Below, one piece after another: positions 7,492-46,962 of a stretch of DNA of 64,000 nucleotides (within the stretch, counting starts at the first letter, position 1; every line of letters begins with the position of its first letter). This stretch comes from Candidatus Pacearchaeota archaeon. Lineage in GTDB: Archaea > Nanobdellota > Nanobdellia > Pacearchaeales > GW2011-AR1. The notes under the pieces were generated by a model that saw only the letters and a list, made by a program, of their open reading frames with translations, was not told where the DNA came from and made no database searches. The position numbers and the translations under genes are program-made. The stretch spans positions 101,221 to 165,220 of the forward strand of contig JBAZYP010000003.1 of the NCBI GenBank assembly GCA_041659265.1, read 5' to 3'.

Positions 7492-7493
7492 TT

Positions 7494-13565: not shown

Positions 13566-13570
13566 TTTCC

Positions 13571-28547: not shown

Positions 28548-29123
28548 ATGGCTATTGAAACATTAACAATAATTATTCTTGCAATTGCTGCTTTGTTAGG
28601 TGTATTAGTAATCATGTTCATATTCTATTATAATCGATTTACAGTTCTTGAGAATAGAATCGATAACAGTTTAGCGCAGATTGATGTACAATTAAAGAAA
28701 AGAGCAGATTTGATTCCAGCTTTGATTAAGACTGTATCAGGTTATGCAAAGCATGAGAAAAAAATAATGGAAGCAGTTACTCATGCTAGAGCATCAATGT
28801 TAAAGGGCGGAAATCTTGATAAGAGATTAAAAGCAGGCGATGAATTACAATCAGCATTAGGAAGATTATTTGCTATAGCTGAGAACTATCCTAATTTAAA
28901 AGCTAATGAAAATTTCTTGCATATGCAAACAGAATTATCTGCTATTGAAGATAAAGTAGCTTATTCAAGACAATTCTATAATGACTCAGTAATGTCATAT
29001 GAAAACGCAACTGAATTATTCCCTGGTGTATTCTTCTTTAAAATGATGGGCAAATCAAAGAAAGAATACTTGAAGATTTCAGAAGCAGATAAGAATATGC
29101 CTAAGATAGAGTTCGAAGAATAA
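28548..29123 (+). CDS. lemA: LemA-family membrane protein
   Basis: N-terminal TM, then NRFTVLENRIDNSLAQIDVQLKKRADLIPALI ... YPNLKANENFLHMQTEL ... YNDSV, which is typical of LemA. Confidence 0.75.
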   Translation: MAIETLTIIILAIAALLGVLVIMFIFYYNRFTVLENRIDNSLAQIDVQLKKRADLIPALIKTVSGYAKHEKKIMEAVTHARASMLKGGNLDKRLKAGDELQSALGRLFAIAENYPNLKANENFLHMQTELSAIEDKVAYSRQFYNDSVMSYENATELFPGVFFFKMMGKSKKEYLKISEADKNMPKIEFEE

Positions 29124-29266
29124 ATAGTTAGATTTATTTTTATTTTTTTTAGTCCTCAAATTCCCTAAGAATTTGAATGTCCAATATGCCTAAGATAGAG
29201 TTCGAAGAATAAATAGTTAGATTTATTTTTATTTTTTTTAACCCTCAAATTCCCTAAGAATTTGAT
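29097..29266. repeat. Two tandem copies of about 89 bp spanning the lemA stop codon (last 9 codons + stop + 3' flank duplicated)
   Basis: ATGCCTAAGATAGAGTTCGAAGAATAAATAGTTAGATTTATTTTTATTTTTTTTA(G/A)(T/C)CCTCAAATTCCCTAAGAATTTGA occurs at 29097 and again at 29186. Confidence 0.75.
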
Positions 29267-29314
29267 TTTATCAACTATAATAAATATTTTATAATAATTA
29301 TCTAATTTAAATAA

Positions 29315-29614
29315 TTGGAAAAAGCATTTAATAATATTCTAATTCCTAATATTATGGAAGATAAAACTTTGGAAATATTGGTCGATAGGATAAAGGGAGC
29401 AAAAATTGTACCAATATCTGCTGGTGGACAAGTTGATTGCAGATATTGTAAACATTATTCATATGAACAAGATGTTGAATTAGAATCTTGTAAATGTGAA
29501 AAAGGCTATTTTAACAGTCCATTTGGAGATATGAATCCTAATATTAATTTTGGAGCCTGTAAGGGTAAGGATTTTGAATTTAATAATTATTTCATTGTAT
29601 CTAAAAAAGAATAA
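29315..29614 (+). CDS. Small Cys-rich protein, 99 aa
   Basis: CRYCKHY ... CKCEKG ... CKGK. Confidence 0.3.
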   Translation: MEKAFNNILIPNIMEDKTLEILVDRIKGAKIVPISAGGQVDCRYCKHYSYEQDVELESCKCEKGYFNSPFGDMNPNINFGACKGKDFEFNNYFIVSKKE

Positions 29615-29619
29615 TTTTC

Positions 29620-30222
29620 CTATTTTTTTCTATATAAAATATTACCAATACTTTTCTTGTTCCTAATCTTTTGACCATTATGTAAAATTTTATTAATTTC
29701 TTCAGATATTAATTCAAGATTAGGTTTCCTTATCTTTCCATTAGTGTGCTGATAATTAGGGTCTTTAGAACATTTGAATACAAGTTCAATTTCGTCTTTT
29801 GTTATCGGTTTAACTCCTCGTTTTTCTAAAGCCATTTTACATATTACCTTTCTAGTTTCTGTATCTTGAGAATATAATCCAGCAGATCTTAAATAAATCT
29901 CTTCATTTCTTCTTGCAACATGATCTTTTTCAAGTTTTTCAAGTATAGATTCTTCAAATAATCCATCAAAAGCTTCATATAATCCTCCATAATATCCCCT
30001 TATTGCAAAACCAACTGCAGTTACAGCGACTCTATCCGATACATCAAATCTTCTTGCAATATCTAGATTTTGAGCAATTTCTTTTTGATATAACAATTGT
30101 GAATATTGGGTCTTTATTTTTTCACAATCCTGCACATTTCCAAGTATAGAACAAGCTAGTTCTAAGCCCTTTCTAATGGCTGCATATCTTCTTTGTTGAT
30201 TATCGCAACTTTTATCTAGCAT
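29620..30222 (-). CDS. Hypothetical protein, 200 aa
   Basis: ORF track. No family recognised. Confidence 0.4.
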   Translation of the reverse strand: MLDKSCDNQQRRYAAIRKGLELACSILGNVQDCEKIKTQYSQLLYQKEIAQNLDIARRFDVSDRVAVTAVGFAIRGYYGGLYEAFDGLFEESILEKLEKDHVARRNEEIYLRSAGLYSQDTETRKVICKMALEKRGVKPITKDEIELVFKCSKDPNYQHTNGKIRKPNLELISEEINKILHNGQKIRNKKSIGNILYRKK

Positions 30223-30443
30223 AGTATAATCCTTTCTAATACTTTATAGAAATCCTTTAAAAACTTATTGATTCTAATACTCTTCTCCTAATTGAACCTC
30301 ATTTTCATTTTATTAACCTTAATTAAGTCTTAAATCGTGGCGTTCTTGTTCAAAGTAATAGAACTTTGGACATAGCTCTAATCTAAAGCTTTTTATACCC
30401 TACTAATCCTATAAGAATCTCTTAAATTACTTAAAATATTATC

Positions 30444-31670
30444 ATGGAAACTTCATTAGCATTTGTTTTAGCAGGTGGAAAGGGAGATAGGCTCTCACCA
30501 CTAACAGATTTTAGGGCAAAACCAGCTGTGCCTTTTTCAAGATATAGGATAATTGACCATAATGTAAGTTCATTAATTAATGCAGGTGTAGCTAAGATTT
30601 TCCTTCTTCCACAATATCAACCACTATCTCTTGATGTTCATTCTGATAAAGCTTATCCTCATACAGATATGCGCCTTGAAAAAATAGTTAGATTAGCTTA
30701 TCCAAGGGAAATAAGAAAAGAAAGAGGAGAGACTGAATTTGCATGGTATTTAGGTACTGCTCATGCAGTTAAACAAAATATTGAATTAATAGAAAAATAT
30801 ACTCCAGATCATGTATTAGTTTTTGCTGGAGACCATGTCTGTTCAGTGAATGTAGCAGATATGCTTGATAAACATCATAAGGAAAAAAGAGATTTAACAA
30901 TAGCTGTTGAAGTAAGACAATTAAAAGAATCTGATTTTGAAATAGGAAAAGATAAGCAATTAAGATATAAATATGGAATAATTGACAGCGATAAAAATAA
31001 TAGAATTTTAGGGTTTAGGGAAAAACCATTAAGAAATGAAATGGGTAAACCTGGTGATGAAGTCCTTGTATCAATGGGAAATTATGTTTTTCATACAGAT
31101 CCATTAATGGACGCATTAAATGAAGTTAATGAAAAATTTAATGATTTTGGAAAAAATGTAATTCCAAGCATGTTAAATAAGAAAATGGATTTATTTATTT
31201 ACAGATTTAATGGTTATTGGAGAGATGTCGGAGATGTGGTTTCTTATTTTAATGCATGTATGGATTTAAATCAAATTCATCCACCATTAGACTATAAACA
31301 ATTAAGAAAAGAAAAAAGACCCATTATAACTGAAGGTGGAGAAATTCCTCCAACAAGGTTTGAAAGTCAAGGTAAAATTTCAACTGTTTCAGAAGGTAGT
31401 GAGATTTACGGAACAATTGAAAATTGTGTATTAGGTCAAAATGTCTATATTGGAAAAGGAAGTATTGTTAGAGATTCTATAATCTTTCCAGGAGTTATTA
31501 TTGAAGAAGGTGTTAATATAAGAAATGCAATAATTGATAAAAATAATACAATTCCTAGGGGTATAACTATTGGATGTTATGATCAACCGGGAGATAGATT
31601 AAAGCAATTCTATACTATTCCAAAAGATAATGATTACATAGCTGTTGTTCCTAAGGGTTTATTAAAATAA
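30444..31670 (+). CDS. glgC: NDP-sugar pyrophosphorylase, glucose-1-phosphate adenylyltransferase (GlgC)-like, with C-terminal left-handed beta-helix
   Basis: FVLAGGKGDRLSPLTDFRAKPAVPF ... YRIIDHNVSSLINAGV matches the GlgC N-terminal signature. The C-terminal hexapeptide-like repeats run GQNVYIGKGSIVRDSIIFPGVIIEEGVNIRNAII. Confidence 0.65.
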   Translation: METSLAFVLAGGKGDRLSPLTDFRAKPAVPFSRYRIIDHNVSSLINAGVAKIFLLPQYQPLSLDVHSDKAYPHTDMRLEKIVRLAYPREIRKERGETEFAWYLGTAHAVKQNIELIEKYTPDHVLVFAGDHVCSVNVADMLDKHHKEKRDLTIAVEVRQLKESDFEIGKDKQLRYKYGIIDSDKNNRILGFREKPLRNEMGKPGDEVLVSMGNYVFHTDPLMDALNEVNEKFNDFGKNVIPSMLNKKMDLFIYRFNGYWRDVGDVVSYFNACMDLNQIHPPLDYKQLRKEKRPIITEGGEIPPTRFESQGKISTVSEGSEIYGTIENCVLGQNVYIGKGSIVRDSIIFPGVIIEEGVNIRNAIIDKNNTIPRGITIGCYDQPGDRLKQFYTIPKDNDYIAVVPKGLLK

Positions 31671-31766
31671 AATAATGGGATTCTAATATTATTCTATGTT
31701 GGTTTATTATTCTTTTTTAAAATAATTATAATTTCATAATTTACTTTTGAAATTATAACAAAATGA

Positions 31767-32504
31767 TTATTGTTCTCTTCTATAAAATCTAATGATAGCT
31801 ATAATCATTAATATCTCTCCAAGAATAAATATTAACCAATTATAACTAACCGGAATAAAACTAGATACTAATTGATTAAATTCTATATTAGTTAGAAGAT
31901 TAAAATAATCTCCTAAAAATCCATTTTTATAAATTAAATTAAAATAATCTTTCATCCAAGTATAAAGCATCAAAATTCCTCCACTAAAAAGCAATATCCA
32001 TTCAGACTTCATAATTTTTATTTTTTTACCCTTATCTTCAAAATTAATTATTAAAAAAGAAAAAACAATCATGGTTATTGAACATATGATAGGTGCAGCA
32101 ACAGGGCCTAACCAGGGTATAGGTATTAAAAATAATATATCCCATGTAAATAATGAACTTGGCCAATCTAATATCACCTTTAGCCATATATAATAGAATA
32201 TATCCCAAATAGCAAAGCTAAACATAAAGTATGCAAATCTTTCATGAAACTTTTTAGCAGCTAGTATTGCAATAGTTACTAACATAACTATTGTAAAAAA
32301 TTCTCTAATAACTTCAAGACTATAAATATTAGAATCCATATTTGGATTTAATGGAAAATTAAATCCCTTTGGATAATACATCATTCGTAGATAAACTACA
32401 ATTATGGTTTCTAAAAAAGCCATTGCAATAGCAAATATACCAATTGTCAAAAATTTCTTAACACTATCTTTTTTCATGATTAAATTCTTGTATTTACTAT
32501 GCAC
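31767..32504 (-). CDS. Polytopic membrane protein, function unknown
   Basis: Multiple hydrophobic helices. Confidence 0.4.
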   Translation of the reverse strand: MHSKYKNLIMKKDSVKKFLTIGIFAIAMAFLETIIVVYLRMMYYPKGFNFPLNPNMDSNIYSLEVIREFFTIVMLVTIAILAAKKFHERFAYFMFSFAIWDIFYYIWLKVILDWPSSLFTWDILFLIPIPWLGPVAAPIICSITMIVFSFLIINFEDKGKKIKIMKSEWILLFSGGILMLYTWMKDYFNLIYKNGFLGDYFNLLTNIEFNQLVSSFIPVSYNWLIFILGEILMIIAIIRFYRREQ

Positions 32505-32652
32505 TTATTACTGGTTTATGAGGTCTCTTCAGATGAAATTCGCAATTAGGTTTCTTGCAAGCTCTTCCAAGCCATTCTTCGCACTTATCACAATAATAGG
32601 AATCAAATTCCTTATTGTAAGTGTCTTCGTTTCCACAATATTTGCATTTCAT
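32497..32652 (-). CDS. Small zinc-ribbon protein, about 51 aa, not in the ORF track
   Basis: Manual minus-strand translation gives MKCKYCGNEDTYNKEFDSYYCDKCEEWLGRACKKPNCEFHLKRPHKPVISA, with two CxxC pairs. Confidence 0.35.
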   Translation of the reverse strand: MKCKYCGNEDTYNKEFDSYYCDKCEEWLGRACKKPNCEFHLKRPHKPVISA

Positions 32653-32829
32653 TTATTTATCAAGTTTATCTAGTTATTATATCTTACTTATTTTTGTTAC
32701 TATTTTAAAGGCTAAAAAAGAATTTTATAGGGTTTTTAAGGCTTAAAAAACCATAATTTAAAATAATGATTTTCACTATGAAGTAGTAATATTTATATAA
32801 TCTTATATAATATATTTCCTAGATTAAAA

Positions 32830-33480
32830 ATGAATAGACAAATATTGACTGAATTTACTCTTGAAAACTTAGATTTAATCGCAAATCTATATGGGGCTAT
32901 TAGAAGGTTATCATCTAAAGATGGTGCTGAGGGTTTAATCTATGAACCAATTATTGATAAAGAAAATAATCTCCAGAGTATAAATTATAATATTGAAAGA
33001 TTGACTGAATATCTCTCTTTTTTTGCAGAAGACTCAAAAAGATTATCAGAAAAACTTAAGTTAGAAATGATTAAAAAAAAATCCTTATTTTTTGATTTTC
33101 ATCCATCAAAAACCTATAAAGAAGGTCAATTATCCGGCCGCCCATTGATATATCTTGGGCATATTACTGATAAAAGAACTGTTAATATTTATGGAAAAGA
33201 TCATGAATTTTTTGAATGCAGATCTAATGAAGACTCGTACCCTGGTTTTCAGTATCCTAAAGAAATGTATAATGCGAGTGGAGTATATACAAATGGAGAA
33301 TATACCTGGTTTGATAATCCTAATGTATTTGAGCATAATAGTATTGAAGAAGAAACGTTCTATCTTGATAATGGCATTGAACTGCCCCTAAGATCTCATA
33401 TGAAAGTTTTGGATAGGTTTAGTCTTGAAGAACTTATTGTATTCAAAAGATTAGGTGAAAAAAACTATAAAATTTCTTAG
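32830..33480 (+). CDS. Hypothetical protein, 216 aa
   Basis: ORF track. Confidence 0.4.
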   Translation: MNRQILTEFTLENLDLIANLYGAIRRLSSKDGAEGLIYEPIIDKENNLQSINYNIERLTEYLSFFAEDSKRLSEKLKLEMIKKKSLFFDFHPSKTYKEGQLSGRPLIYLGHITDKRTVNIYGKDHEFFECRSNEDSYPGFQYPKEMYNASGVYTNGEYTWFDNPNVFEHNSIEEETFYLDNGIELPLRSHMKVLDRFSLEELIVFKRLGEKNYKIS

Positions 33481-33530
33481 ACCCCTTAAATTCTTTGATT
33501 AGTATTTTTTCTTATAAAAATTTACTTGTT

Positions 33531-36500
33531 TTATTCAGTAAAAATTCTTGTCTTGATAAATTGCCGCATTGCATCAGGATTTCTATATTCTGTGAATGCA
33601 GCAGGAGTGAAGGTATCTTCTACAAATGTTTCAGGGTTTCTTATGACTAAAGAAACTGTACCATCAGATTCTAATCTATAAAGTTCATGATAAATTGGTC
33701 CAGATGGGGTATTTTGTATAGTATAAAACGCAGGATTTCGTTCACTAATTGGTTTTGCAAGTTCTGCAATTACTCTGTCAGTTACATCAAATGCACCAGC
33801 ATTATCAATATTAGTATACTTCTTTACTAATGCCGGATCAAGCATACCAATATATGCTCTCTGGTGCTCAGGTAATGTAACTGAAATCATTTTGGAATAT
33901 TCCTTGCCTGAAACAGGATTTAAAACTGATTCAGACAATATTTCATCAAACATTCCATACATTTCATTTCTTCTTATAATTAAACTTGCATCTTTTGATG
34001 TACCCCATCTTCCAATTTCTCTAAGGTTACCAAAAAAGTCTCCTGTTGGAGAATCAAAAGTGCTCATTGAACCTGCAACTTTTCCATCAATCTGGATATT
34101 ATAAGTTTCAGCACGGCCAACTTTATTCAAAATCTTTTGTTTTGTATAAACTGCATAGGGTCTTAGTTTTTCATTTGCAGCATTAGCATAATCAATAAAA
34201 ACAACTTCTGCATTCTCAACAAGATCTGCTGAAGCAACAACTCGTGATTGTGATATTGGATGTATTGCAGATTGAGAAAATCTTGCAGCAGGTTCTGAGT
34301 TATAATATTTCATCAAGGCACGTCTTGCATCCGGATGTTCTCTTATGAATGCATTTGTCATTTCTTCAGGATTAAATATATCTACAATATCTGCACTATC
34401 AATATCAGATAAAATTTTTGATAATTCCTCACCTTGATAATTATTTAAGACATAATCTTTAAAATCCTCGGTAAGTGCGCTAACATCTGTCAACTTTTTT
34501 GAACCAAACTGCATTCTTCTAGCTCTATCAGTTAAAGTCTTAAGTTCTTTGAAATATACCTTTTCTAATTCACGTTCAACTCCAGTGTCATCAATTAGGT
34601 TACGTAGAGCTGTTGTTCCATCAGGATTCTTTACTCTTACTTTAATATCAGGAAAAGTTATTGTTCCACCATTTGCAGCTGGTTCGAATTTAAGATTAGA
34701 GAAATCAGCATGATTCCTTAAAATATTCTCAGCTCTTGTTGGATATTTTCTTTTTAATCCAGAATTAATCTTTACAATATCTGCTTCTTCAATAATTATT
34801 GTTCCTGATTTTCTTACTTGGAGTGATGGATTATTAAAAAAACCAGTACCTGTTGGTGTTTCTAATAAGTTCTTTAATTGATTTGTTGCTGCAAACGGAT
34901 CTTCCATGTTCCTTATAACTTTCATAGCATCATATTGTTTATAGAAAATATCTGCCTCAGCCTTTGTAAGCTTGGATAGACTTCTGTACATTTTTTCAGC
35001 ATGAGTCCTTTCAACAAGATCAATTATTTCCTCTGCAACATCAACAGCTGAACTTTCAATTTCTGCAGCTGTAGCTGTAGATTTGCCTCTAAAAATCCTC
35101 CATCTTGATGTTCCGTCAGGAGCAGGAGTTGTTTTTAAAACAAGAATAACTTCATCTGCAACCTTGCTTTCTAATACTCCAACCCTGGTAAGGATATTTG
35201 TTCCTACTCTTTTTATAATCCTCAATGTAAAAGGAAGAGCTTTAGAAAGTACAGCTCCTGTAGCAATATTAAAAAGACCTTCTCCAACATCTGTAAGGAC
35301 AGCATCAGTCATACTATCATATTCTTCAGGGTTTAATTTGTATCTTATTGCATTTACTCCACCTGTAAAATAAAATGGCAGTTCCAACATTGTTTGCATC
35401 AATGCAGCATTTCCATTATAACCATTTGCCATTTCAATATAATCAGAACCAACAGTTTCATCAGATACTGAAACAATTTGACTGTCATGAACATACCAAC
35501 CAACTATCACGAGATGATATGCACCATGACCACCTTCATAGACTTTATCTTTTTTTGCTTTAAAAGAAGTCTTAACCTTAAGATTCTCATGGATATAAAC
35601 ATCTTCTGGTGTTGTTCTTTTTCCTGCTGCAACCTGAAGGTCTTTAAAAAAACTAAAGCACATAGAGAAAATAGTCTTAGGGTCAGCTACCCCATAATCA
35701 TTTACAATAGGATAACTTATCTGTACTTTTCTTACAATTTTTAATTTCTCTAATGCTTTCATCTCTGCATCTGAGATAAGATTGTAGTTCCTGATATATT
35801 CAAATTTCTGTTCCTTGGTAATATCAGTTCTTAATGCAGTTTTCGATGAAAGATCAATCGCTTTCATTAATTTTGCCCATGCATCTTTTGGATGAATATT
35901 ATAATCCACAAATCTTCCTTGCATATTTTGTGCATTTACTTTTATTATAGGTAACCTAGAAAAATAATAATCTGCAATTTCTTGATATGTTGCACCATCA
36001 GGACCATAATTAAAACTTCTCGGTTTATCATCAAACTCTTTATAGACCGAGTAATAGTTTATCGGGCAAACCTCCGGATCAGTTATAACTTTTCCTGTAA
36101 ATCCAACATCGTATAAATAACCAGTGCCACATGAAAATTCCAGACTAGGATTTAGTTTAAGATCTGTTATGCATAAAGCTTTTTCACTATTGCAAGTCGG
36201 ACATTTGAGTGTTAACATTTTTTTTGAAAAATAACCATTAAATATCTCACGAAAGTAACCATTAGGATTATTTGATAGGGATTTTGTTGTAATAGTATTA
36301 TCAGAATTAGTTAATAATAGAGAACAAGAGCCAGCTGACTTTGTTGCTCCACGCAAGACAAAAATATTATATTCATTATAAGGTAGGAAGAAGACATCTT
36401 TTTCACTTGTAGTGGGACTAACTAAAAACTCAATATTTGTCCATGTTAGTTCAGGTGTAATATTGCATGTACCAGTTTGGCAAGAATTTATACGAGGACT

Positions 36501-39500
36501 TTTAAGGAGCTTTATTTCTGTTGACTTGCTTGTAAAAGTTGTGCATAATTGGTTTGTTTTTAGATAATCATTGATAAGAGTAAAGATTTCAGCTCCAGCA
36601 GATGTTTGAGTACCGTTAATAGCTGTATATGTTAAGCTGTTGCAATCATTATAAAAATCCAATCTTGGCTGATAACTTGAATTTGTCTCATTAGTAGTAT
36701 ATTTAATTATGACTGAAATAGAACTTGAATACAATGATAAATTATTCAATAAAGGAATTATTCTGTTGCAAAGTGTACAATCACTTGGATTGTCTGTTGT
36801 GAAGATAATATTTCCACAAGACTGTGGAACTGAATAAATATAATTAACATTAAATGTACTTGTTGTTTCTATAGAGGGCATTACTGATGTAAAATTCATG
36901 TACCTAGTTTCATTAGGTTTTAGAGTAACATTATAGTCTCCAATAATGAATGAACCCGTAGGAGGATGGATATGATATGTTAAGTTTATATCAAGATAAT
37001 TGAACAATTCAATTGACCCATTGAATAATTTACCTACTTCAAAATTTCTTGCATAAATCCATTGAACACTAGTCCCATTAGAGCCATTTTTCCACATGTT
37101 TCTGACATAACTTTCTCCTTTGTTGCAATATTGATTGCATCCACATTGAGAGTTCGAAGTGCACGAATCATTGATTATCTTGCATGAGGATCTTGTTGAT
37201 TCACTTCCATTACAACATCCGATTTTTCCAGATATTGAGCAATTATTAAAAATTGGTACTTTTAAACAAGTTCCATTGAAACTTTCTTTTGGTTCAGCTT
37301 TAAAGACAAAATTATATGTATCAGATATATCTGAACTAATACTACATTCAAGAGGATTATTATTTATATAATTATTTACACATGATTCAAATCCAACAGT
37401 ACCAGAGCAGACTTTTCTATTATCTCTATTTAATGCAACCGGATAGTTTGATAAGCCATATCTTGTTTCAAATCTTGTTTTACAATATTTCTGTATATAT
37501 CCATTATAACTAGAGGTTGCAAAGTCAAAAATATTAAAAGATCTAAAAGGTAGGGGATATATGTTCTGCATTATTTTTATGATATGATTAATTGTTTTTT
37601 GTCTTGTTAAACAAACACTTTCAGCTTTTGAATCATATAATATTTTTATGCAATTCATTCCACCAGGTACTGAGAGATCTAATTTATTTATACCTTTTTG
37701 AGGTATTGATTTTTTAATCTCAAAAACAAAACTATAATCTAAAAAATTAGTAGCATAATTAAAATTAATTATTTTATTCTGTTTAGCTAAAATTGTTCCT
37801 TTAATGGGTTCATTAATAAAATTTGAAGCTTCTACTCCAATTAAAATCTGACTAGTATCATAATAAACACTTTTTAAGATTACTTCATACTTTATTGGCA
37901 CATCAAAAGGATTTGATATGACTATAGGTTCTGTAATAAGTTTTCCAGGTTTAATGTTCAAATATACAAAATCATTACCTTTTTTTATGATTTTTTCACT
38001 ATTATAATACTTGCAATATTCACAACTTGAACAGGCTTGATTATTTTGAGAACAAGTTTTTCCAATGACTTTTGTACAAATTCCAGATGAACATTTTCCA
38101 GATTTTATTACTCCTTTTCCATTATAAGGATCTTTTTCATAAAATGTACATGACTTTCCATTTTTAGTCGAGTCAGCAATACAACCTGCATTTGGATTAT
38201 TAATATCGCATGTTTCACATTCAGAACAAACTTTAGAAATTCTATCAGCTCTTAAATATGCCCAATCAAAAATACCTGAATATGAATCTCTTAGGACAAG
38301 ATCAGGAAGAAAGGAGTATTCAACAATTATATCTCTGTTGGAAATAACTCCAAGACTATCCTGTTTATAACATTTTTTTGGGGGATTAGCGGGTGGAGAA
38401 CATTTATTTCCTGATTGAGAACAAACATAGGATGTTGTATATTGATCTGTTCTAGAATGTACAGTAACTTTATACCATCCAGAAGTATTGAAAATTTTGC
38501 ATGTATTGCTTGCAGTGCAAGGTATTTCAGTTCTTTCATAATTATATATTGGAGGGTAAGAGATATCACATCTATAGGTTTTTGTTTCAGTCTGAGTACA
38601 TTTTTTTGGTACAGGGCAGATTGGATTAGGAGTATTACAAGTACTAATATTAGAACAATAAGCCATACCCCAACATTGATGAATGCACGCCCCATTAGAG
38701 CATTGCTGACAATTATTTTTTTGTTTACATTGATCTATTATAGAACTAGTTAATGATGTTTGATTATAATAACATGATTCGCAAAGGTTTGGATTAGGAC
38801 TTTCACTTAAAGATTGACCATTAAAACAAAATGAACAGCTGCCATTAATAGCAGGCATAGTTGATGAACAATTTCCATTAGAACATGTTTGACAAGCTGT
38901 ATAATTGCATTTTGATTTGCATGCACCACCATTGCATGTCTGACATCCAGTGCAGGTTGAAGTGCAATTCTTTTTTGAAGAATCATATTGTAAACAATTA
39001 CTTTCACTGCAAGTAGAACACTGAGTGCCATTCCAAGGAAGTCCTTTCTTGCAATCAAATGAACAATTTCCAGGATCATCAACAATAGCAAAACCAGTTA
39101 TTGCATCAGCGGTTATAGTTGGTTTTTCTTTTCCAAGAAATAATCCTTTAATGAATTTATTAAAGCCTACTAACCTTTCTCCAAAAGATTTTTCATTAGG
39201 TTCTTTTTGTGTTATTATTACTTCTGGTTTAATTTCTTCATTTTCTTCTACGGGTTTTAATGAACTTAATGTACCTAAATTATCTATTTCATATTCACAT
39301 TGACATTCATCTTTTATTGAACTTACAAGAGTCCAGGTTCCACATCTTCCTCCGCATCCATCTTCACTGCATGAATATATATTATTTGAACAATGAGGGA
39401 CACAGGTTCCATCGCATACTCCATTAGTACATGTTTGACCTACTTGACAAGTTCCACATGTTCCAGAACATCCATCTGATCCACAAGTCTTTCCAGCACA

Positions 39501-40937
39501 ATTTGGAATGCAACTTCCAACACATTGTCCATTAGTGCATGTTTGACCTACTTGACAAGTTCCACATGTTCCTCCACATCCATTATCTCCACAAGTCTTT
39601 CCAGCACAATTTGGAATGCAACTTCCAACACATTGTCCATTAGTACATGTTTGACCTACTTGACAAGTTCCACATGTTCCTCCGCATTCATTATCTCCGC
39701 AAGTCTTTCCAAAACAATTAGGTAAACATGATGGCCCACAAACTCCATTATTGCAAAAATTACCAATCATACAAGTCCCACAGCTTCCTGAACATCCATC
39801 AGATCCACAATTTTTTCCAGCACAATTAGGTAGACAACTTTGATAACATAAACCTGATTTACATTCATAATTAGTTGGACATGTTCCGCATGTTCCTCCA
39901 CATCCATTATCTCCACAATATTTTCCAGAACAACTAGGAATACATGATGGATTAGAACATTGATAATTAGAATTACAAACTAATGGAGAAGTGCATGTTC
40001 CACAAAATCCAGAACAACCATCTGGACCACATTGTTTATTGGTGCACGATGGAGTGCAGGTAGTTATACAGTTGCCATTTGAACAGGTTTGACCAATTGG
40101 ACATATTCCACAAGTTAGATAAGATCCACATCCATCAGACCATGAGCCACAAGATTTTCCAAGTATAGGACATGTTGTTGGAGTGCATGGATTAATTGGA
40201 GGAAGAATTGGATTAGTGATTGGTGTTGTAGGGTTTGTTGGATATGAAGGAGGAGTTAATATTGGAAGAGTAAAAATATAATTATAATCAGAAGTTATAT
40301 CACTTGCAGATATTGCAGAATTATATACTCTAACTTCATCTATAGCACCTTTAAATGGATACCATAAACTACTTCTTCCATCACCAAAAGAAAATTTATA
40401 TGTTGAATAATAAGTTACAGTTCCAGGAGCATTTAATGTATTATCTAAAACTCCATCAATATAAATCTTCATAGATGTTCCATCATAAGTAAAGACTAGA
40501 TTATACCAAGTGTTATCAAGAAGTTTTTTTATTGAATAGACTGATTTTTGGGTTCCAGCAATATTCATTGAAAATATTATCCTTCCATCAGACATGAAAC
40601 CAAAATAAGGTAAATGCTGACCCATAAACATATTATATGTATTCAGTGAAGAATATCTTTTAACCCATAAAGAATAAGTCATCTGATTACCTTTTCCTGT
40701 AAGTAAATCTTTTGTTTCTAATCTGGATAAACCATCAAATGACAAGGCTTTTCCATTCTTGCCTTCAATAAAAGTTGTTGTACCAACAACTGTAGCAGGA
40801 TTTGTTGGATTATAAAAATCAATTATGCTATCATCAAATTTATAATGAATTATAGGACTAACAGCGCTAATATTTAAAATATTAGCTAATATTATCCCTA
40901 ATAAGATTACGAATATCCACACTCTTTTACTTGTCAT
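33531..40937 (-). CDS. Giant 2468-aa secreted/surface protein: signal peptide, LamG/concanavalin-A-like jelly-roll domain, Pro/Thr linker, about 8 tandem 36-aa Cys-rich repeats, a long Cys- and N-x-S/T-rich region, and a roughly 1100-aa Cys-poor C-terminal region
   Basis: N-terminal MTSKRVWIFVILLGIILANILNISA. LamG-like WYNLVFTYDGTSMKIYIDGVL. Repeats CxPNCAGKTCGxDGCxGTCGTCQVGQTCTNGQCVGS. Single uninterrupted ORF. Confidence 0.8.
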   Translation of the reverse strand: MTSKRVWIFVILLGIILANILNISAVSPIIHYKFDDSIIDFYNPTNPATVVGTTTFIEGKNGKALSFDGLSRLETKDLLTGKGNQMTYSLWVKRYSSLNTYNMFMGQHLPYFGFMSDGRIIFSMNIAGTQKSVYSIKKLLDNTWYNLVFTYDGTSMKIYIDGVLDNTLNAPGTVTYYSTYKFSFGDGRSSLWYPFKGAIDEVRVYNSAISASDITSDYNYIFTLPILTPPSYPTNPTTPITNPILPPINPCTPTTCPILGKSCGSWSDGCGSYLTCGICPIGQTCSNGNCITTCTPSCTNKQCGPDGCSGFCGTCTSPLVCNSNYQCSNPSCIPSCSGKYCGDNGCGGTCGTCPTNYECKSGLCYQSCLPNCAGKNCGSDGCSGSCGTCMIGNFCNNGVCGPSCLPNCFGKTCGDNECGGTCGTCQVGQTCTNGQCVGSCIPNCAGKTCGDNGCGGTCGTCQVGQTCTNGQCVGSCIPNCAGKTCGSDGCSGTCGTCQVGQTCTNGVCDGTCVPHCSNNIYSCSEDGCGGRCGTWTLVSSIKDECQCEYEIDNLGTLSSLKPVEENEEIKPEVIITQKEPNEKSFGERLVGFNKFIKGLFLGKEKPTITADAITGFAIVDDPGNCSFDCKKGLPWNGTQCSTCSESNCLQYDSSKKNCTSTCTGCQTCNGGACKSKCNYTACQTCSNGNCSSTMPAINGSCSFCFNGQSLSESPNPNLCESCYYNQTSLTSSIIDQCKQKNNCQQCSNGACIHQCWGMAYCSNISTCNTPNPICPVPKKCTQTETKTYRCDISYPPIYNYERTEIPCTASNTCKIFNTSGWYKVTVHSRTDQYTTSYVCSQSGNKCSPPANPPKKCYKQDSLGVISNRDIIVEYSFLPDLVLRDSYSGIFDWAYLRADRISKVCSECETCDINNPNAGCIADSTKNGKSCTFYEKDPYNGKGVIKSGKCSSGICTKVIGKTCSQNNQACSSCEYCKYYNSEKIIKKGNDFVYLNIKPGKLITEPIVISNPFDVPIKYEVILKSVYYDTSQILIGVEASNFINEPIKGTILAKQNKIINFNYATNFLDYSFVFEIKKSIPQKGINKLDLSVPGGMNCIKILYDSKAESVCLTRQKTINHIIKIMQNIYPLPFRSFNIFDFATSSYNGYIQKYCKTRFETRYGLSNYPVALNRDNRKVCSGTVGFESCVNNYINNNPLECSISSDISDTYNFVFKAEPKESFNGTCLKVPIFNNCSISGKIGCCNGSESTRSSCKIINDSCTSNSQCGCNQYCNKGESYVRNMWKNGSNGTSVQWIYARNFEVGKLFNGSIELFNYLDINLTYHIHPPTGSFIIGDYNVTLKPNETRYMNFTSVMPSIETTSTFNVNYIYSVPQSCGNIIFTTDNPSDCTLCNRIIPLLNNLSLYSSSISVIIKYTTNETNSSYQPRLDFYNDCNSLTYTAINGTQTSAGAEIFTLINDYLKTNQLCTTFTSKSTEIKLLKSPRINSCQTGTCNITPELTWTNIEFLVSPTTSEKDVFFLPYNEYNIFVLRGATKSAGSCSLLLTNSDNTITTKSLSNNPNGYFREIFNGYFSKKMLTLKCPTCNSEKALCITDLKLNPSLEFSCGTGYLYDVGFTGKVITDPEVCPINYYSVYKEFDDKPRSFNYGPDGATYQEIADYYFSRLPIIKVNAQNMQGRFVDYNIHPKDAWAKLMKAIDLSSKTALRTDITKEQKFEYIRNYNLISDAEMKALEKLKIVRKVQISYPIVNDYGVADPKTIFSMCFSFFKDLQVAAGKRTTPEDVYIHENLKVKTSFKAKKDKVYEGGHGAYHLVIVGWYVHDSQIVSVSDETVGSDYIEMANGYNGNAALMQTMLELPFYFTGGVNAIRYKLNPEEYDSMTDAVLTDVGEGLFNIATGAVLSKALPFTLRIIKRVGTNILTRVGVLESKVADEVILVLKTTPAPDGTSRWRIFRGKSTATAAEIESSAVDVAEEIIDLVERTHAEKMYRSLSKLTKAEADIFYKQYDAMKVIRNMEDPFAATNQLKNLLETPTGTGFFNNPSLQVRKSGTIIIEEADIVKINSGLKRKYPTRAENILRNHADFSNLKFEPAANGGTITFPDIKVRVKNPDGTTALRNLIDDTGVERELEKVYFKELKTLTDRARRMQFGSKKLTDVSALTEDFKDYVLNNYQGEELSKILSDIDSADIVDIFNPEEMTNAFIREHPDARRALMKYYNSEPAARFSQSAIHPISQSRVVASADLVENAEVVFIDYANAANEKLRPYAVYTKQKILNKVGRAETYNIQIDGKVAGSMSTFDSPTGDFFGNLREIGRWGTSKDASLIIRRNEMYGMFDEILSESVLNPVSGKEYSKMISVTLPEHQRAYIGMLDPALVKKYTNIDNAGAFDVTDRVIAELAKPISERNPAFYTIQNTPSGPIYHELYRLESDGTVSLVIRNPETFVEDTFTPAAFTEYRNPDAMRQFIKTRIFTE
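39422..39745. repeat. Three near-identical 108-bp tandem DNA repeats inside the giant gene, each encoding one 36-aa Cys-rich module
   Basis: Read directly: CATTAGT(R)CATGTTTGACCTACTTGACAAGTTCCACATGTTCC ... CACAAGTCTTTCCAGCACAATTTGGAATGCAACTTCCAACACATTGTC repeated at 39422, 39530 and 39638. Confidence 0.8.
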
Positions 40938-41034
40938 CCATTATTTTAAAAGATAGACTAATATTTAAATTCTATTATAATAAAATAAAAAAAGATTCAC
41001 AACACTTAAAAATATCAATTACCTTAAATAGATT

Positions 41035-41937
41035 ATGGAACAAATGAATCGAACCTCTTTTTATGATCAAATTTCTTCGAATAAATGGAAATCTGTTGTT
41101 TTAATGTCATTAGTATTTATTGTTTTAATTGCAATTGGAGCTATTATTGGTTTAGTTTTAGGTCCAGATTATTTTTTCTTTATAATGATTATTTCAATAA
41201 TAATTTCTATTGTCTATATCTGGATGGGTTATTTTCATTCAGCAGATTTAGCAATAGCTTCTGTTGGAGCAAAGATTGCAGATAGGGTTCATTACAAACA
41301 ATATTATCATTCAGTTGAAGGTTTAACTATGGCTTCAGGTTTACCAATGCCAAAATTATATGTTATGGAAGATAATAATATTAATGCATTTGCTTCAGGA
41401 AGAGACCCAGAACATGCTGTTATTTGTATAACTACTGGTGCTTATAATAAACTTTCAAAACAAGAATTAGAAGGAGTTTTAAGTCATGAACTTTCTCACA
41501 TAGCTAATTATGATATAAGGTTCATGACTCTAACTGCAATATTAGTTGGAATGATTGCAATAATTTCTGAAATATTTTTAAGAAGTTTATGGTTTAAAGA
41601 TTCAGGTTCAGATGATAATGGTTGGAATTTAGCATTAATAATAATTGGTATTGCTATGGCAATAATTGCCCCTATCATTGTTAAATTAGTTCAATTAGCA
41701 ATCTCTAGAAAAAGGGAATACATGGCAGATGCTTCCGCAGTTAAATTCACAAGATTCCCAACTGGTTTAGTTGGTGCATTAAAAAAAATAAAGACTGAAA
41801 CATCCGCTCCTGCTGAAAAAGTATCTTCAGCTATTGCTCCATTATTTATGGCAGACCCATTCAAGAGAAATTTCGATGGCCTTTTTTCAACTCATCCACC
41901 TCTTGAAAAAAGAATAGCAATGTTGGAACGTATGTAG
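41035..41937 (+). CDS. htpX: HtpX-like M48 zinc metalloprotease (membrane)
   Basis: LEGVLSHELSHIANYD contains the HExxH site within the typical HtpX membrane topology. Confidence 0.8.
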   Translation: MEQMNRTSFYDQISSNKWKSVVLMSLVFIVLIAIGAIIGLVLGPDYFFFIMIISIIISIVYIWMGYFHSADLAIASVGAKIADRVHYKQYYHSVEGLTMASGLPMPKLYVMEDNNINAFASGRDPEHAVICITTGAYNKLSKQELEGVLSHELSHIANYDIRFMTLTAILVGMIAIISEIFLRSLWFKDSGSDDNGWNLALIIIGIAMAIIAPIIVKLVQLAISRKREYMADASAVKFTRFPTGLVGALKKIKTETSAPAEKVSSAIAPLFMADPFKRNFDGLFSTHPPLEKRIAMLERM

Positions 41938-42289: not shown

Positions 42290-42706
42290 TCAAATCTTTC
42301 CTTTCATTATTCTATTGACATAATAAGCCCAAACAATAGTAATTAAAAGTATTAAATAAGCAATTGAAAAATACATATGAGGTTTAGTATAGGCCATTGC
42401 CTTGAATACAACAATCAATAGTAATAATAATGGTGATATGAATGCAAGACTAAAACTACCTAGTAAAATAAATTCACTTTTCTTATATAAAAATAAACCT
42501 ATTAATAATACGATAGTTAAACCAATTGAAGAAGGAATTCCTGTAATATTCATATTCATTCTTTTTTCTAAAATCATTCCACCAAACATAAATAATGATT
42601 GGATTATAACTACAATAACAATACCAATAAAGAAATATTTTAAGACATTATTTTCTTCAGATTTATTTTTTGAAACTGGTTTCTTATTTACAACCTTCTT
42701 TTTCAT
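42290..42706 (-). CDS. Membrane protein, 138 aa
   Basis: K-rich N-terminus followed by 3-4 TM helices. Confidence 0.35.
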   Translation of the reverse strand: MKKKVVNKKPVSKNKSEENNVLKYFFIGIVIVVIIQSLFMFGGMILEKRMNMNITGIPSSIGLTIVLLIGLFLYKKSEFILLGSFSLAFISPLLLLLIVVFKAMAYTKPHMYFSIAYLILLITIVWAYYVNRIMKGKI

Positions 42707-42751
42707 TTAATAATAAGGAGAATTTTATTTAAATACCTTTCTAAAAGATTT

Positions 42752-43543
42752 CTAATATTTTTTTATTAACTTTAAACAATTTCTAAAAATTTCTTTTTCT
42801 CTATTGAAAAATATAACAAAATATATCACACATATTAATGAAAATATCTGGAAAAAGGTTAGTCCGAATAATATTACTTTTTCAATTCTAATAAATTCAA
42901 TAAAAAATCTAAAAGTAAAATAACTTATCATTAATTGTCTGAATAATTCACCAGGTTTAGGATTTTGTCTTTTTGCATATAATAAATAAAAAAACATTAT
43001 TAACATAAAAATAGATTCATATATTTGAGTAGGATGTCTTAAGATCTTATCACCAAAATCAACCCCCCAAGGTAATGTTGTTGGTTTCCCATAACAACAT
43101 CCTCTCAAAAAACAACCAATTCTTCCAATTGCTACACCTAATGCAATTGCAGGAGCAAATAAATTTCCTTTTCTTTCTTTTAATTTTAAATGTTTTTTAG
43201 CTATAAAAACTCCAATCATTCCACCGATTAATCCTCCGGTTATTGTCCTTCCAGAAAGAATCACCATGGGGTTTGTTATATTCGCAAGTATAAACTTATA
43301 ATTTAATATCCATATTGGTAATTTAGCACCAATTGCTCCACCAACTATTGCCGCAAGAGCAATATAAAATGTATTTTCATTTGCACTTTTATTTTTTCTA
43401 GCTTCAAGATAATAAATATAAGAACCAACAACAATTGCTAAAAGCATAAATGTCCCATAAGAAGGAATTTTTATTCCAAAAAAATTAAATAAATAAGGAT
43501 AAACTCCCCAATCATCTCCAGGAATTAAATGTTCATCAATCAT
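42752..43543 (-). CDS. lgt: Prolipoprotein diacylglyceryl transferase (Lgt) homolog
   Basis: AIGRIGCFLRGCCYGK vs the E. coli Lgt signature GLGRLGNFINGELWGR. ILRHPTQIYESIFML vs LPRHPSQLYELLLEG. SYFTFRFFIEFIRIE vs GYGAFRIIVEFFRQP. Confidence 0.85.
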   Translation of the reverse strand: MIDEHLIPGDDWGVYPYLFNFFGIKIPSYGTFMLLAIVVGSYIYYLEARKNKSANENTFYIALAAIVGGAIGAKLPIWILNYKFILANITNPMVILSGRTITGGLIGGMIGVFIAKKHLKLKERKGNLFAPAIALGVAIGRIGCFLRGCCYGKPTTLPWGVDFGDKILRHPTQIYESIFMLIMFFYLLYAKRQNPKPGELFRQLMISYFTFRFFIEFIRIEKVILFGLTFFQIFSLICVIYFVIFFNREKEIFRNCLKLIKKY

Positions 43544-44085
43544 TTTTTATGTTTAAAGACACAACATCCAGTTGTCATGCAATTATATATTTTTATTCCA
43601 CCACAAAAACCAAAACTTGATGCTGTCTTTAACAAAGCTAAAAAGAATAATATAACAAATCCAATTCTTTCATTAATATAATACAAAAATATTAATGCAA
43701 TAAAACTAAATATTGCCCCTAATAGATTAGCAAAAATAACAGCCTTTCTATCATAAGTATCTTTTTTAGATTTCATTAATTTTTCTACTGTATTTTCAAA
43801 TAATAATACAAATGGATTATATTCAGTTTTTAATGTAACTGCAATAAGAATTAAAACAAATCCTAATAAAGCAATTTCTTTAATTTGAAAAATTATTGCA
43901 AGGAAGTATAAAATAGCTATTATAATTTTTGAAAATCCTAGCGAATATCTTGATATTGAAAAAAATCTTTCATTAGTAAATCCGCCAGCTTTAATAATAG
44001 TATCAACAATTCTTTTTTTATCATCGCAAAGATCTTTATAAGACTCTTGATATACTCTTTTTGCTATTTTTTCTCTATCACTCAT
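43540..44085 (-). CDS. Membrane protein (4 TM) with a Cys-rich C-terminal tail
   Basis: C-terminus FGFCGGIKIYNCMTTGCCVFKHKK. Start overlaps the lgt stop. Confidence 0.4.
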   Translation of the reverse strand: MSDREKIAKRVYQESYKDLCDDKKRIVDTIIKAGGFTNERFFSISRYSLGFSKIIIAILYFLAIIFQIKEIALLGFVLILIAVTLKTEYNPFVLLFENTVEKLMKSKKDTYDRKAVIFANLLGAIFSFIALIFLYYINERIGFVILFFLALLKTASSFGFCGGIKIYNCMTTGCCVFKHKK

Positions 44086-44090
44086 TTTTA

Positions 44091-44738
44091 TTATCTTTTA
44101 TAAAATATCTTATTTAAATTAGGAAAAAACATTCCTACATTATTCTGATATTCTTTATAATTTTTAAACTCTTCTTTCAATAATTTCTCTTCTTGTTTAG
44201 CCCTATAATACATGAATGGAACAAATACAAATGTATTTATTAAAAAACACATGTAATTAGAATAAGCTAGACTTCCTCCATAAAACATCCAGATTAATGA
44301 AGCATATAATGGATGCCTTACAATAGAATATAATCCACTTGTTACAAGGGTATGATCTTTATAGATTTTAATTTGATTGGACCAGTTTTTTCCTAGATTA
44401 AATCTACCTTTAACATTAAAATAAGCACCAAAGACAATCAAGAAAGTTCCAAATATAAGCATAATTAATCTTAGATTAACATTCTTTATTTCAAAATTAC
44501 CTATTCCAAACCTAATAAGGTTTGAATATATAAAAAAGAATAAGAACATGCTTCCTGTTTCAACAATAGATTTCTTTTTCTTTTTTTCATTCTTTCTTGG
44601 ATGAAATTCAATAAAATCAATTATTATAGCAACAATAACAACTAACATTGATAACATAATTAATAATGACATGGATAATGTAAATATTCCAATAGGAGTT
44701 TTTACAAGTTCTTTAACAATCTCAATATTTTTTATCAT
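44091..44738 (-). CDS. Isoprenylcysteine carboxyl methyltransferase (ICMT)/phospholipid methyltransferase-family membrane methyltransferase
   Basis: LVTSGLYSIVRHPLYASLIWMFYGG ... EEKLLKEEF is the C-terminal ICMT-family signature (RHPxY ... E). Confidence 0.65.
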   Translation of the reverse strand: MIKNIEIVKELVKTPIGIFTLSMSLLIMLSMLVVIVAIIIDFIEFHPRKNEKKKKKSIVETGSMFLFFFIYSNLIRFGIGNFEIKNVNLRLIMLIFGTFLIVFGAYFNVKGRFNLGKNWSNQIKIYKDHTLVTSGLYSIVRHPLYASLIWMFYGGSLAYSNYMCFLINTFVFVPFMYYRAKQEEKLLKEEFKNYKEYQNNVGMFFPNLNKIFYKR

Positions 44739-44739
44739 A

Positions 44740-45021
44740 TTAATTATATTTTTTATTGATCTGCTCTATTCTCTTTTTAATTATATAATAAGTTATTAAG
44801 AATATTATAAGAAAAATTGAAAAAACAAAAATCATTGATAGGGATTGATTATCAAACATATTTTTTAAATAGGGATTTGTTTCAGCAAAATCTACTAATA
44901 TTACTCCAACAAAACCAACAGGAATGCACGAACCAACAAAAACTAATGGTCCTACAATAAATATTGTCAATAAAATTAATATCATTCTTGTTACAGGCCT
45001 CTTAATTTTTTCTTCATCCAT
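44740..45021 (-). CDS. Small two-TM protein, paralog 1 of a six-member tandem family (lipobox-like VGSC motif, C-terminal KKYN)
   Basis: MDEEKIKRPVTRMILILLTIFIVGPLVFVGSCIPVG ... KKYN. Confidence 0.5.
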   Translation of the reverse strand: MDEEKIKRPVTRMILILLTIFIVGPLVFVGSCIPVGFVGVILVDFAETNPYLKNMFDNQSLSMIFVFSIFLIIFLITYYIIKKRIEQINKKYN

Positions 45022-45490
45022 ATTTTTCTTTGATAAATTTAATTGTTTTTATTACAACAAAAAATGCTAAAATAGTCCCTATTACTAATCCTGCTAGAAG
45101 ATATACCTCTGCTTTTGTGCTATAAATGTTCTGAGTAGTTACACCATAAAATCCAATAGGAAAACATGATCCAACAAAAACTAATGGTCCCAATATAAAA
45201 ATAGTTATTAAAATTCTTATTTTAATTTCAATTCCACTTTTTGTTTCTCTATTTTTGCTATTAGCATAAATATTATCAAAATGGAAATATAATCCACTTA
45301 ATACAAGAATAATCGATATAATAAAAATTAGAATCTGAATTAATTTTAAAATAAAATAAAAATCACGGAATTGACTAGTTCTAATAAACTCAATAATTAA
45401 AAATAAAATTAAATTTATAAATAAAATTAAAAAAAAATAATTTAATAATTTGCCTTTTTGTCCTTGATTATTAATATTTTTTTCATCCAT
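45014..45490 (-). CDS. Paralog 2, with an extra N-terminal TM region and an internal GPLVFVGSCFP motif
   Basis: ILGPLVFVGSCFPIGFYG ... IKEKYG. Confidence 0.45.
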   Translation of the reverse strand: MDEKNINNQGQKGKLLNYFFLILFINLILFLIIEFIRTSQFRDFYFILKLIQILIFIISIILVLSGLYFHFDNIYANSKNRETKSGIEIKIRILITIFILGPLVFVGSCFPIGFYGVTTQNIYSTKAEVYLLAGLVIGTILAFFVVIKTIKFIKEKYG

Positions 45491-45923
45491 TTTTTAAATC
45501 TTTAATAAATTTATATATAAAAAATAATGCTAGAAAACAAAATAGGAAAAATGACAGATATCCAGTTATCTCTTCTCTTGATTCTTTTGGAAATATTGAA
45601 GAATAGGTAAAAAAAGGAATTAATACTAATAACATATATCCTATAAAAAAATAAATAATATAATTATTAAAGAACTTTTTAATTATATATTTGGATTTTG
45701 TTGGATCCTGTTTATAGAATTTTAATATTTTTAAAATCAAAAATGCAGATATTAAGCCACAAAATAATGAAAGAAAAGGTAAAATTAAATCATAATTATT
45801 AAAATACGTGCTAGAGATTCCTAGGGGTAAGCAAGAACCTAAAAATATTAAAGGACCAATTAAAAATAAAATTAAGATAACAAATAAAACTTTTGATATT
45901 TTAGATTTTTTTCCTTCATCCAT
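45483..45923 (-). CDS. Paralog 3, with a C-terminal extension
   Basis: MDEGKKSKISKVLFVILILFLIGPLIFLGSCLPLG. Confidence 0.45.
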   Translation of the reverse strand: MDEGKKSKISKVLFVILILFLIGPLIFLGSCLPLGISSTYFNNYDLILPFLSLFCGLISAFLILKILKFYKQDPTKSKYIIKKFFNNYIIYFFIGYMLLVLIPFFTYSSIFPKESREEITGYLSFFLFCFLALFFIYKFIKDLKNG

Positions 45924-46624: not shown

Positions 46625-46697
46625 AAATACTAATATGCATTTGAGCTTATAAATATTGTTTATTTTATAATCTTAATAATTTTCTTTTTATTTTCTA

Positions 46698-46937: not shown

Positions 46938-46962
46938 TTTTATGATATTTAAATAATTTAAT

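Follow-up and report, generated by a model that had tools for sequence, protein, structure and literature searches.

A giant LamG-bearing protein of a Pacearchaeota archaeon and the small gene that accompanies its C-terminal module

We describe a protein of 2,468 amino acids (aa) encoded in a 64,000-nucleotide stretch of contig JBAZYP010000003.1 (assembly GCA_041659265.1, positions 101,221 to 165,220 of the forward strand), which is referred to as the window. The protein belongs to a known kind, that of giant LamG-bearing surface proteins of DPANN archaea. Its last ~530 residues form a separate module, with no Cys and no N-glycosylation sequons (N-x-S/T), and are the sole part conserved in the single known relative. 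Comparison of the two loci shows this module to be inherited together with a small protein that is predicted to be cytoplasmic. The first ~1,600 residues show an extracellular-type composition as judged from sequence, made up of a LamG domain, modules with eight Cys each, and a Cys-containing region that bears sequons. Tentatively, and with a confidence well short of even, we read the giant protein as a delivery stalk that carries an effector domain and the small protein as its cognate, immunity-like partner; a plain adhesin is almost as likely.

The C-terminal module and its companion gene

The C-terminal domain (CTD; aa 1942 to 2468; 33534..35114, minus strand) is defined by its conservation in the one relative. 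A preliminary description of the window, made from the letters alone, had proposed looking for homologs of the C-terminal part by itself. With aa 1270 to 2468 as the query and 1.84 billion cluster representatives as the target, an exhaustive phmmer search returned the protein itself and exactly one relative, P0002 (1,777 aa; E = 1.4e-30); aa 1270 to 1624 had no relative in this search. By BLASTP, aa 1942 to 2362 of the giant protein align with aa 1245 to 1679 of P0002 at 29% identity (E = 5e-43), and nothing upstream of aa 1942 aligns, aa 1625 to 1941 included. Conservation peaks at ~aa 2085 to 2230 and 2270 to 2310, giving a core at ~aa 2085 to 2310, and the motifs FPxIKVR, ALRxL, QFG, EDF, YQGEEL, HPxxRRA, FDSPT, and EIGxW are common to both sequences. 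The overall plan of P0002 is the same: a signal peptide (assigned by rule), a Cys-rich region with 92 Cys that includes one CxxDCxGKxCGxDGCGGxCG module, and a Cys-free tail of 764 aa. Its N-terminal part differs from that of the giant protein, and the CTD alone is common to the two.

P0002 was found on a Joint Genome Institute (JGI) metagenome contig (L081; 36% G+C) of another, DPANN-like archaeon, which also encodes ribosomal protein L15e and has a GH15 gene that is 65% identical to one of a "Woesearchaeota" metagenome-assembled genome (MAG; L074). A second giant exported protein (2,319 aa, with DUF2341 and Laminin_G_3) is encoded at 730 to 7689 of L081, 2.3 kb upstream of P0002. As this second giant carries Laminin_G_3, the LamG domain and the Cys-rich/CTD protein are on separate genes in that archaeon.

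The partner gene (32830..33480, plus strand; MFA5856361.1, WC867_03320) lies directly downstream of the giant gene and is convergent with it, with 50 nt between the two stop codons. It encodes 216 aa. At the P0002 locus the directly downstream gene is likewise convergent (272 aa, gap of 18 nt), and its product is a homolog of the window's partner protein (38% identity over 131 aa; E = 4e-21). Together with the CTD proteins, these two small proteins are the only gene products that the two loci have in common. Because no other flanking gene is shared, the pairing has outlived extensive rearrangement, with its orientation and minimal gap kept. Both partner proteins lack a signal peptide and a transmembrane (TM) segment, and neither matches a family in Pfam, NCBIfam, or PADLOC. 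No relative of the CTD or of the partner was found in 80 related Pacearchaeota/Woesearchaeota loci. By sequence comparison, the tail and the partner are two new, extremely rare families with two members each.

Wider searches gave a similar picture. Scanning for the CTD found no relative in GTDB genome contigs, only an identical fragment in metagenomes, and no relative in viral contigs, phage records, or plasmids. Word-indexed searches with aa 1625 to 2468, aa 560 to 1624, and the two-sequence CTD alignment returned nothing, which makes for weak negatives, as these searches likewise missed the protein's own record and P0002. At 90% identity, the giant protein, P0002, and both partners each form a cluster of their own among 15 billion sequences, and beyond identical fragments in sister metagenomes neither locus recurs. 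The preliminary description had been able to place the C-terminal half in no family, and indeed everything outside the LamG domain is without a match in Pfam (searched whole and as eight segments at E <= 10), NCBIfam, PHROGs, PADLOC, and PDB sequences. Two faint resemblances were rejected. A CTD profile matched the beta subunit of ribonucleotide reductase among PDB sequences (19 bits, E = 0.004), through a helical stretch that has no ligand residues, and the match was not reproduced by either sequence alone. A match to MgtE_N (20 bits, below the cutoff) indicates just a helical segment.

The composition of the tail is distinctive. All 136 Cys of the giant protein fall within aa 1 to 1760, and 14 of these lie at aa 1341 to 1760, the last being C1760. 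The Cys-free C-terminal region is therefore shorter than the ~1,100 aa first given for it: strictly, it comprises aa 1761 to 2468 (708 aa), in which ~7 Cys would be expected (P ~1e-3) from the background of 0.98% in the other open reading frames (ORFs) of the window. In the tail, D+E rises to 14% and K+R to 13%, a charge composition that resembles that of soluble cytoplasmic proteins. An alignment of this region to a known structural repeat family had been raised as a possibility. The tail has no internal repeats by self-BLAST and no match to any such family.

Sequons were at first described as dense, which is borne out for one part of the protein. Within aa 624 to 1492 there are 25 of the 26, a mild excess over the 16.9 expected from composition (P ~0.016). 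None occurs in aa 26 to 560 or in aa 1501 to 2468 (7.6 expected in the latter; P = 0.0002), and P0002 has none in its whole length, in which ~9.5 would be expected. The sequon-free P0002 and the giant's sequon-free ends and mildly enriched middle suggest strong, region-specific selection on N-glycosylation sites.

Architecture of the giant protein

The giant gene (33531..40937, minus strand; ATG start) encodes the protein annotated at NCBI as "LamG-like jellyroll fold domain-containing protein" of Candidatus Pacearchaeota archaeon (MFA5856362.1), on a contig of 224 kb. Inspection of the frame on the minus strand of the window found zero internal stops across 2,468 codons. At the window's G+C content of 27%, ~8% of random codons (~1 in 12) would be stops, and a chance ORF of 7.4 kb is therefore excluded (P roughly 1e-90). 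Over aa 1863 to 2468 and the downstream gene, a metagenome contig of 2.9 kb from an independent assembly (L082) shows 100% identity. The single-gene status is supported by this contig and by the matching fused architecture of P0002.

It is scarcely credible that assembly or annotation has merged several genes into one ORF. Near-identical repeats open to misassembly are present, as a DNA tandem repeat at 39407..39938 has a period of 108 bp and 4.8 copies according to Tandem Repeats Finder (TRF). Its last 2.9 copies (the last three units) are 91% identical, from which we infer recent duplication of the 108-bp units. The copy number could be an assembly risk, but the period is divisible by 3, and any miscount would stay in frame. 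Against a merger there are also the frame that stays open for 7.4 kb in a genome of 27% G+C, the same fused plan in the homolog, and the confirmation of the 3' 1.8 kb by L082. Thus, the single 2,468-aa ORF first reported is upheld, with no sign of the frameshift or gene fusion that had been considered.

The N terminus carries a signal-like segment (aa 1 to 25; 40863..40937, minus strand) that consists of an MTSKR n-region, a hydrophobic core of 17 aa, and, by the -3/-1 rule, a cleavage site between ISA and V. Residues 2 to 25 (MTSKRVWIFVILLGIILANILNISA, with VSP after the cleavage site) are the sole segment of the protein above the Kyte-Doolittle TM threshold; past aa 25 no hydrophobic segment reaches it (best, 1.47). 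This segment is probably a Sec-type signal peptide, with cleavage predicted by rule, and an uncleaved signal anchor is the alternative. The test for membrane anchors found no C-terminal TM anchor and no N-terminal lipobox Cys, the first Cys being at aa 251. The analysis shows a protein that is predicted to be exported and to have no anchor besides its N-terminal hydrophobic segment, in agreement with the first account of it as secreted, Cys-rich, and free of a TM anchor.

The LamG, or concanavalin-A-like jelly-roll, domain (aa 31 to 219; 40281..40847, minus strand) is recognized by Pfam, PDB, and PHROG matches, as the preliminary description had anticipated. Laminin_G_3 (PF13385) matches aa 75 to 214 with E = 1.8e-24 and 87.1 bits against a cutoff of 27.6, the alignment spanning profile positions 9 to 150 of 151, and the domain is accepted as a member of the family. 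Arabinanase 5hon, through its LamG-like C-terminal domain, matches aa 31 to 215 among PDB sequences (E = 3.5e-12), and the PHROG matches are to the LamG regions of virion proteins. Based on family membership, carbohydrate or ligand binding by this domain is putative. LamG-like proteins are abundant in DPANN archaea, often lie on genomic islands, and are considered candidate host-interaction factors (PMC5498576), so the initial view of such giant surface proteins as candidates for host attachment has precedent in the literature. The DPANN LamG jelly-roll proteins expanded in the ARMAN-related Mia14 (PMC5498576) are likewise exported, very large, furnished with Laminin_G_3, located in a variable region, and presumed to act in contacts between cells. 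In comparison with these, the giant protein adds eight 8-Cys modules, the 708-aa Cys-free tail, and a co-inherited cytoplasmic partner, whereas no linkage to a type IV pilus was seen for it.

Following a Pro/Thr-rich linker (aa 221 to 250; 40188..40277, minus strand), read directly from the sequence, are eight tandem 8-Cys modules and one degenerate copy (aa 251 to 547; 39297..40187, minus strand; motif scan and TRF). This refines the earlier count of roughly eight. Each module is ~36 aa long, with the spacing C-x3-C-x4-C-x4-C-x3-C-x2-C-x5-C-x4-C and the core CxPxCxGKxCGxDGCxGxCGxC, and the array holds zero sequons. The motif originally quoted for the modules matches at aa 440, and at aa 476 with V for Q before the last Cys. 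A similar module is also found once in P0002 and in a related surface protein of Pacearchaeota (L011). Like EGF-like and laminin-type EGF (LE) domains, these are short (~36 aa) tandem modules with eight regularly spaced Cys, and they likely form rigid, disulfide-knotted spacers. The resemblance is of kind only, as they differ in Cys spacing and in their core (CGxDGCGGxCGxC), and aa 226 to 560 have no EGF or Laminin_EGF match in Pfam at E <= 10. Literature searches on the CGxDGCGG module and on Cys-rich giant proteins of DPANN archaea found nothing specific.

A Cys-free, Glu/Lys-rich linker read from the sequence (aa 548 to 624; 39066..39296, minus strand) leads to an irregular middle region with 71 Cys (aa 625 to 1624; 36066..39065, minus strand), which was delimited by composition and sequon count and has no family match and no internal repeats. 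Between it and the CTD lies a lineage-specific region (aa 1625 to 1941; 35115..36065, minus strand) with the single Cys C1760, Gly/Ala-rich, moderately hydrophobic stretches at aa 1846 to 1933, and a TTPAPDGTS linker at its end. The protein is thus better divided at about residues 250, 548, 625, 1625, and 1942 than at 230, 520, and 1340, where cuts had been proposed.

The locus and its surroundings

The giant gene shares a divergent intergenic region of 97 nt (40938..41034, read from the sequence) with an M48/HtpX-like peptidase gene (41035 to 41937). The sequence TTTAAATA sits 25 to 32 nt upstream of the giant gene's ATG, and we infer that it is a candidate archaeal TATA box that would give a near-leaderless transcript. 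The best matches of the M48 peptidase, at up to 75% identity, are in Nanoarchaeota, Pacearchaeota, and Woesearchaeota MAGs, which bears out the attribution of the DNA to a DPANN archaeon, as does the NCBI record naming Candidatus Pacearchaeota.

Comparison of the window with the 80 related loci places the giant gene in a variable insert of 11.9 kb (29124..41034), which holds three genes besides the giant gene and its partner. This follows from the flanking genes, 28548 to 29123 and the M48 gene, which are adjacent in several relatives (L014 and L060) and 1.5 to 2.7 kb apart in the closest ones (L002 and L004), against 11.9 kb here. No att-like repeats were found flanking the insert. At 29094 to 29265, exactly at its left edge, an 83-nt sequence is tandemly duplicated (98% identity, 89-nt spacing); the duplicated 83 nt include the last 30 nt and the stop codon of the conserved gene 28548 to 29123, and there is no third copy in the window. 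This duplication may be the scar of an insertion or recombination event.

A second insert occupies 42290 to 48330. In L002, the closest relative, the M48 gene directly precedes the homolog of 48390 to 49040, and here 6.4 kb lies between the two. The second insert encodes a prolipoprotein diacylglyceryl transferase (LGT), DUF4395, an ICMT-family methyltransferase, several small multi-TM proteins, and a radical-SAM/HMPTM-zinc-ribbon protein. LGT is unusual in archaea.

Three other groups of genes in the window deserve mention. None of the seven same-strand genes clustered at 11715 to 19837 (minus strand) has a Pfam identity above threshold. Among their products are a JAB-domain protein (17654 to 18532; PADLOC JAB, E = 1e-7), one in which a stretch resembles mad2 (18525 to 19229; E = 4.5e-9), a 698-aa weakly NucS_C-like protein, and a 452-aa secreted metallopeptidase-like protein, and the cluster may be a defence or conflict island. 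At 4149 to 8480 (minus strand), adjoining tRNA-Val (3986 to 4056), lies a Bat-like (aerotolerance-type) operon that encodes a MoxR AAA+ ATPase (7494 to 8480), a 292-aa protein, BatA/VWA (5663 to 6616), and a 505-aa secreted protein. Finally, the 1,006-aa product of 55574 to 58594 (minus strand) has a signal peptide and only 3 Cys, and it lacks both a C-terminal anchor and any match in Pfam. It is followed by a protein of 349 aa (58591 to 59640, minus strand) that is anchored at its N terminus, and the two form another uncharacterised exported pair.

Possible roles of the module and its partner

If the giant protein is a delivery stalk with an effector, its N-terminal part would be a stalk that serves for binding and as a spacer. 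Whether set free or kept on the cell by a signal anchor that is not cleaved, this stalk would present the C-terminal module to a neighbouring cell, whether host or competitor. The module would be an effector acting on or inside that cell, and the cytoplasmic partner would be its cognate, immunity-like neutraliser, protecting the producer and sibling cells. The logic would be that of a polymorphic-toxin or contact-dependent-inhibition cassette built from unrelated parts. With slightly less confidence again, we entertain the more specific proposal that the CTD and its neighbour are an effector-immunity pair of DPANN archaea not seen before, with a new toxin or manipulation fold and a new cytoplasmic immunity family. 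With such a pair, an episymbiont would have a Sec-dependent archaeal counterpart of contact-dependent inhibition to turn on its host or on rival cells.

Several features support the reading of an effector on a stalk. The composition switches sharply, from 136 Cys in aa 1 to 1760 to 0 after that point, with no sequons past aa 1492. The predicted export without an anchor, the LamG domain, and the Cys modules suit a stalk of this kind. The CTD alone is conserved, on a different N-terminal stem in P0002, and this and the co-inherited partner gene lend indirect support to a separate functional cargo module. Both the CTD and the partner are missing from the 80 related loci. Homologous partners are convergent in both loci with gaps of 18 to 50 nt, and a location in a variable insert is as expected for accessory conflict genes. 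Polymorphic toxin systems are defined by toxin and immunity domains that move together between delivery stems (PMC3482391).

A longer series of observations weighs against this reading. In archaea, polymorphic toxin systems of the classical type and the immunity families that belong to them are reported to be rare or almost wholly lacking (PMC3482391). Searches of Pfam, NCBIfam, and PADLOC recognized no toxin, peptidase, or immunity family, and for aa 1625 to 2468 in particular, Pfam, NCBIfam, PADLOC, and PDB yielded no recognised toxin family or catalytic signature; no catalytic motif can be named in the C-terminal module, for which an enzymatic or toxin-like domain had first been suggested. 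The conserved module, at 420 to 530 aa, exceeds the usual size of a toxin domain. Immunity genes usually lie downstream and are co-transcribed, whereas the partner gene is convergent. No releasing peptidase or pre-toxin domain (HINT, PT-TG, DUF4157, etc.) was found in Pfam at E <= 10, there are no orphan cassettes in the window or in L081, and the association of the CTD with the partner comes from two loci only. The absence of sequons was dropped as evidence specific to the tail, P0002 being sequon-free throughout its 1,777 aa. AlphaFold2 gave no usable model for aa 1701 to 2468 with the two-sequence alignment (mean predicted local distance difference test score [pLDDT], 31.8), nor for the partner alone (pLDDT, 32.7).

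The likeness to polymorphic toxins and contact-dependent inhibition (Zhang, Aravind and co-workers 2012, PMC3482391) lies in the plan, which runs from a signal peptide through a long, repetitive stalk to a C-terminal module, in the co-inheritance of that module and an adjacent small cytoplasmic protein on different stems, and in the accessory, variable location. Several features depart from those systems. Neither the module nor the partner could be matched to a toxin or immunity family already known, and the partner gene is convergent instead of following on the strand of the giant gene. A releasing peptidase, a pre-toxin domain, and orphan cassettes are all missing, and the module is ~2 to 4 times the size of a typical toxin domain. 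Polymorphic toxins vary their tails on a conserved stem among related strains; the two members seen here show the converse, the same tail on different stems. The giant protein would work like a polymorphic-toxin delivery stem, yet it cannot be filed as a polymorphic toxin, because the toxin-family and processing-domain features were absent on testing. The SPEARE proteins of Nanohaloarchaeota are reportedly giant, multidomain DPANN proteins proposed for host attachment and action (Hamm et al., 2019, in PNAS); none of the protease or restriction-endonuclease domains reported for them was detected in the giant protein by Pfam or NCBIfam.

A plain adhesin or surface-matrix protein, the whole of which, CTD included, solely binds, is the main rival and almost as likely. 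The CTD could then be a distal head that binds a host receptor, or a noncovalent anchor to the cell's own S-layer or membrane, and the small neighbour would confer no immunity but would be an accessory protein of the cytoplasm, for example a regulator or an export chaperone. The abundance of LamG-like proteins in DPANN archaea, their frequent location on genomic islands, and their interpretation as host-interaction proteins (PMC5498576) agree with an adhesin, as do the absence of an enzymatic signature in Pfam, NCBIfam, and PADLOC and the convergent orientation of the partner, which is more in keeping with an independent accessory gene than with one for immunity. A protein without a TM segment, lipobox, or C-terminal anchor also needs other means of cell retention; C-terminal TM anchors are present in surface proteins encoded at 62080 to 63705 and 50922 to 51851 of the window and in L011. 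However, an adhesin leaves two things unexplained: the joint inheritance, over ~70% divergence, of an extracellular binding domain and a cytoplasmic protein, and the full avoidance of Cys and sequons by the tail of a disulfide-rich, sequon-bearing protein. The family is also too rare for a general anchoring device. We think it unlikely that the association with the neighbour is coincidental or historical, the CTD being a lineage-specific structural domain and both loci descending from one transferred DNA segment. There are only two independent loci, both from Nanoarchaeota-type DPANN archaea (as seen in the 65% identity of GH15 between L081 and L074), but protein identity has fallen to 29% and 38%, and the flanking genes are otherwise not shared.

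A self-processing toxin of the MARTX or large-clostridial type seems quite improbable. In such a protein, C1760 (in SMCFSFF) and the His-rich GGHGAYHLVIVGWYVHD (aa 1801 to 1817) would belong to a papain- or NlpC-P60-like Cys-His peptidase that releases the C-terminal module, and C1760 is in fact the lone Cys in the last 844 residues. The motif and its Cys-to-His spacing of 43 to 56 residues may resemble those of such peptidases, a likeness that serves as a lead only. Against this stand the lack of a peptidase family match for aa 1740 to 1830 even at E <= 10, the failure of the region to align to P0002, and the uninformative AlphaFold model.

Pacearchaeota are uncultured. Another orphan giant protein of DPANN archaea would be no surprise to specialists, and should the tail do no more than bind or anchor, the present protein adds to the many lineage-specific giant surface proteins and is of modest interest. 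Either way, the revised domain boundaries, together with the one relative, mark out aa 1942 to 2468 plus the 216-aa partner as a tractable construct. The pairing of tail and partner is a specific, testable lead, and if the two are truly an effector and its neutraliser, they would provide a concrete two-gene system, with a possible new fold, in conflict between DPANN archaea and their hosts or among DPANN archaea themselves.

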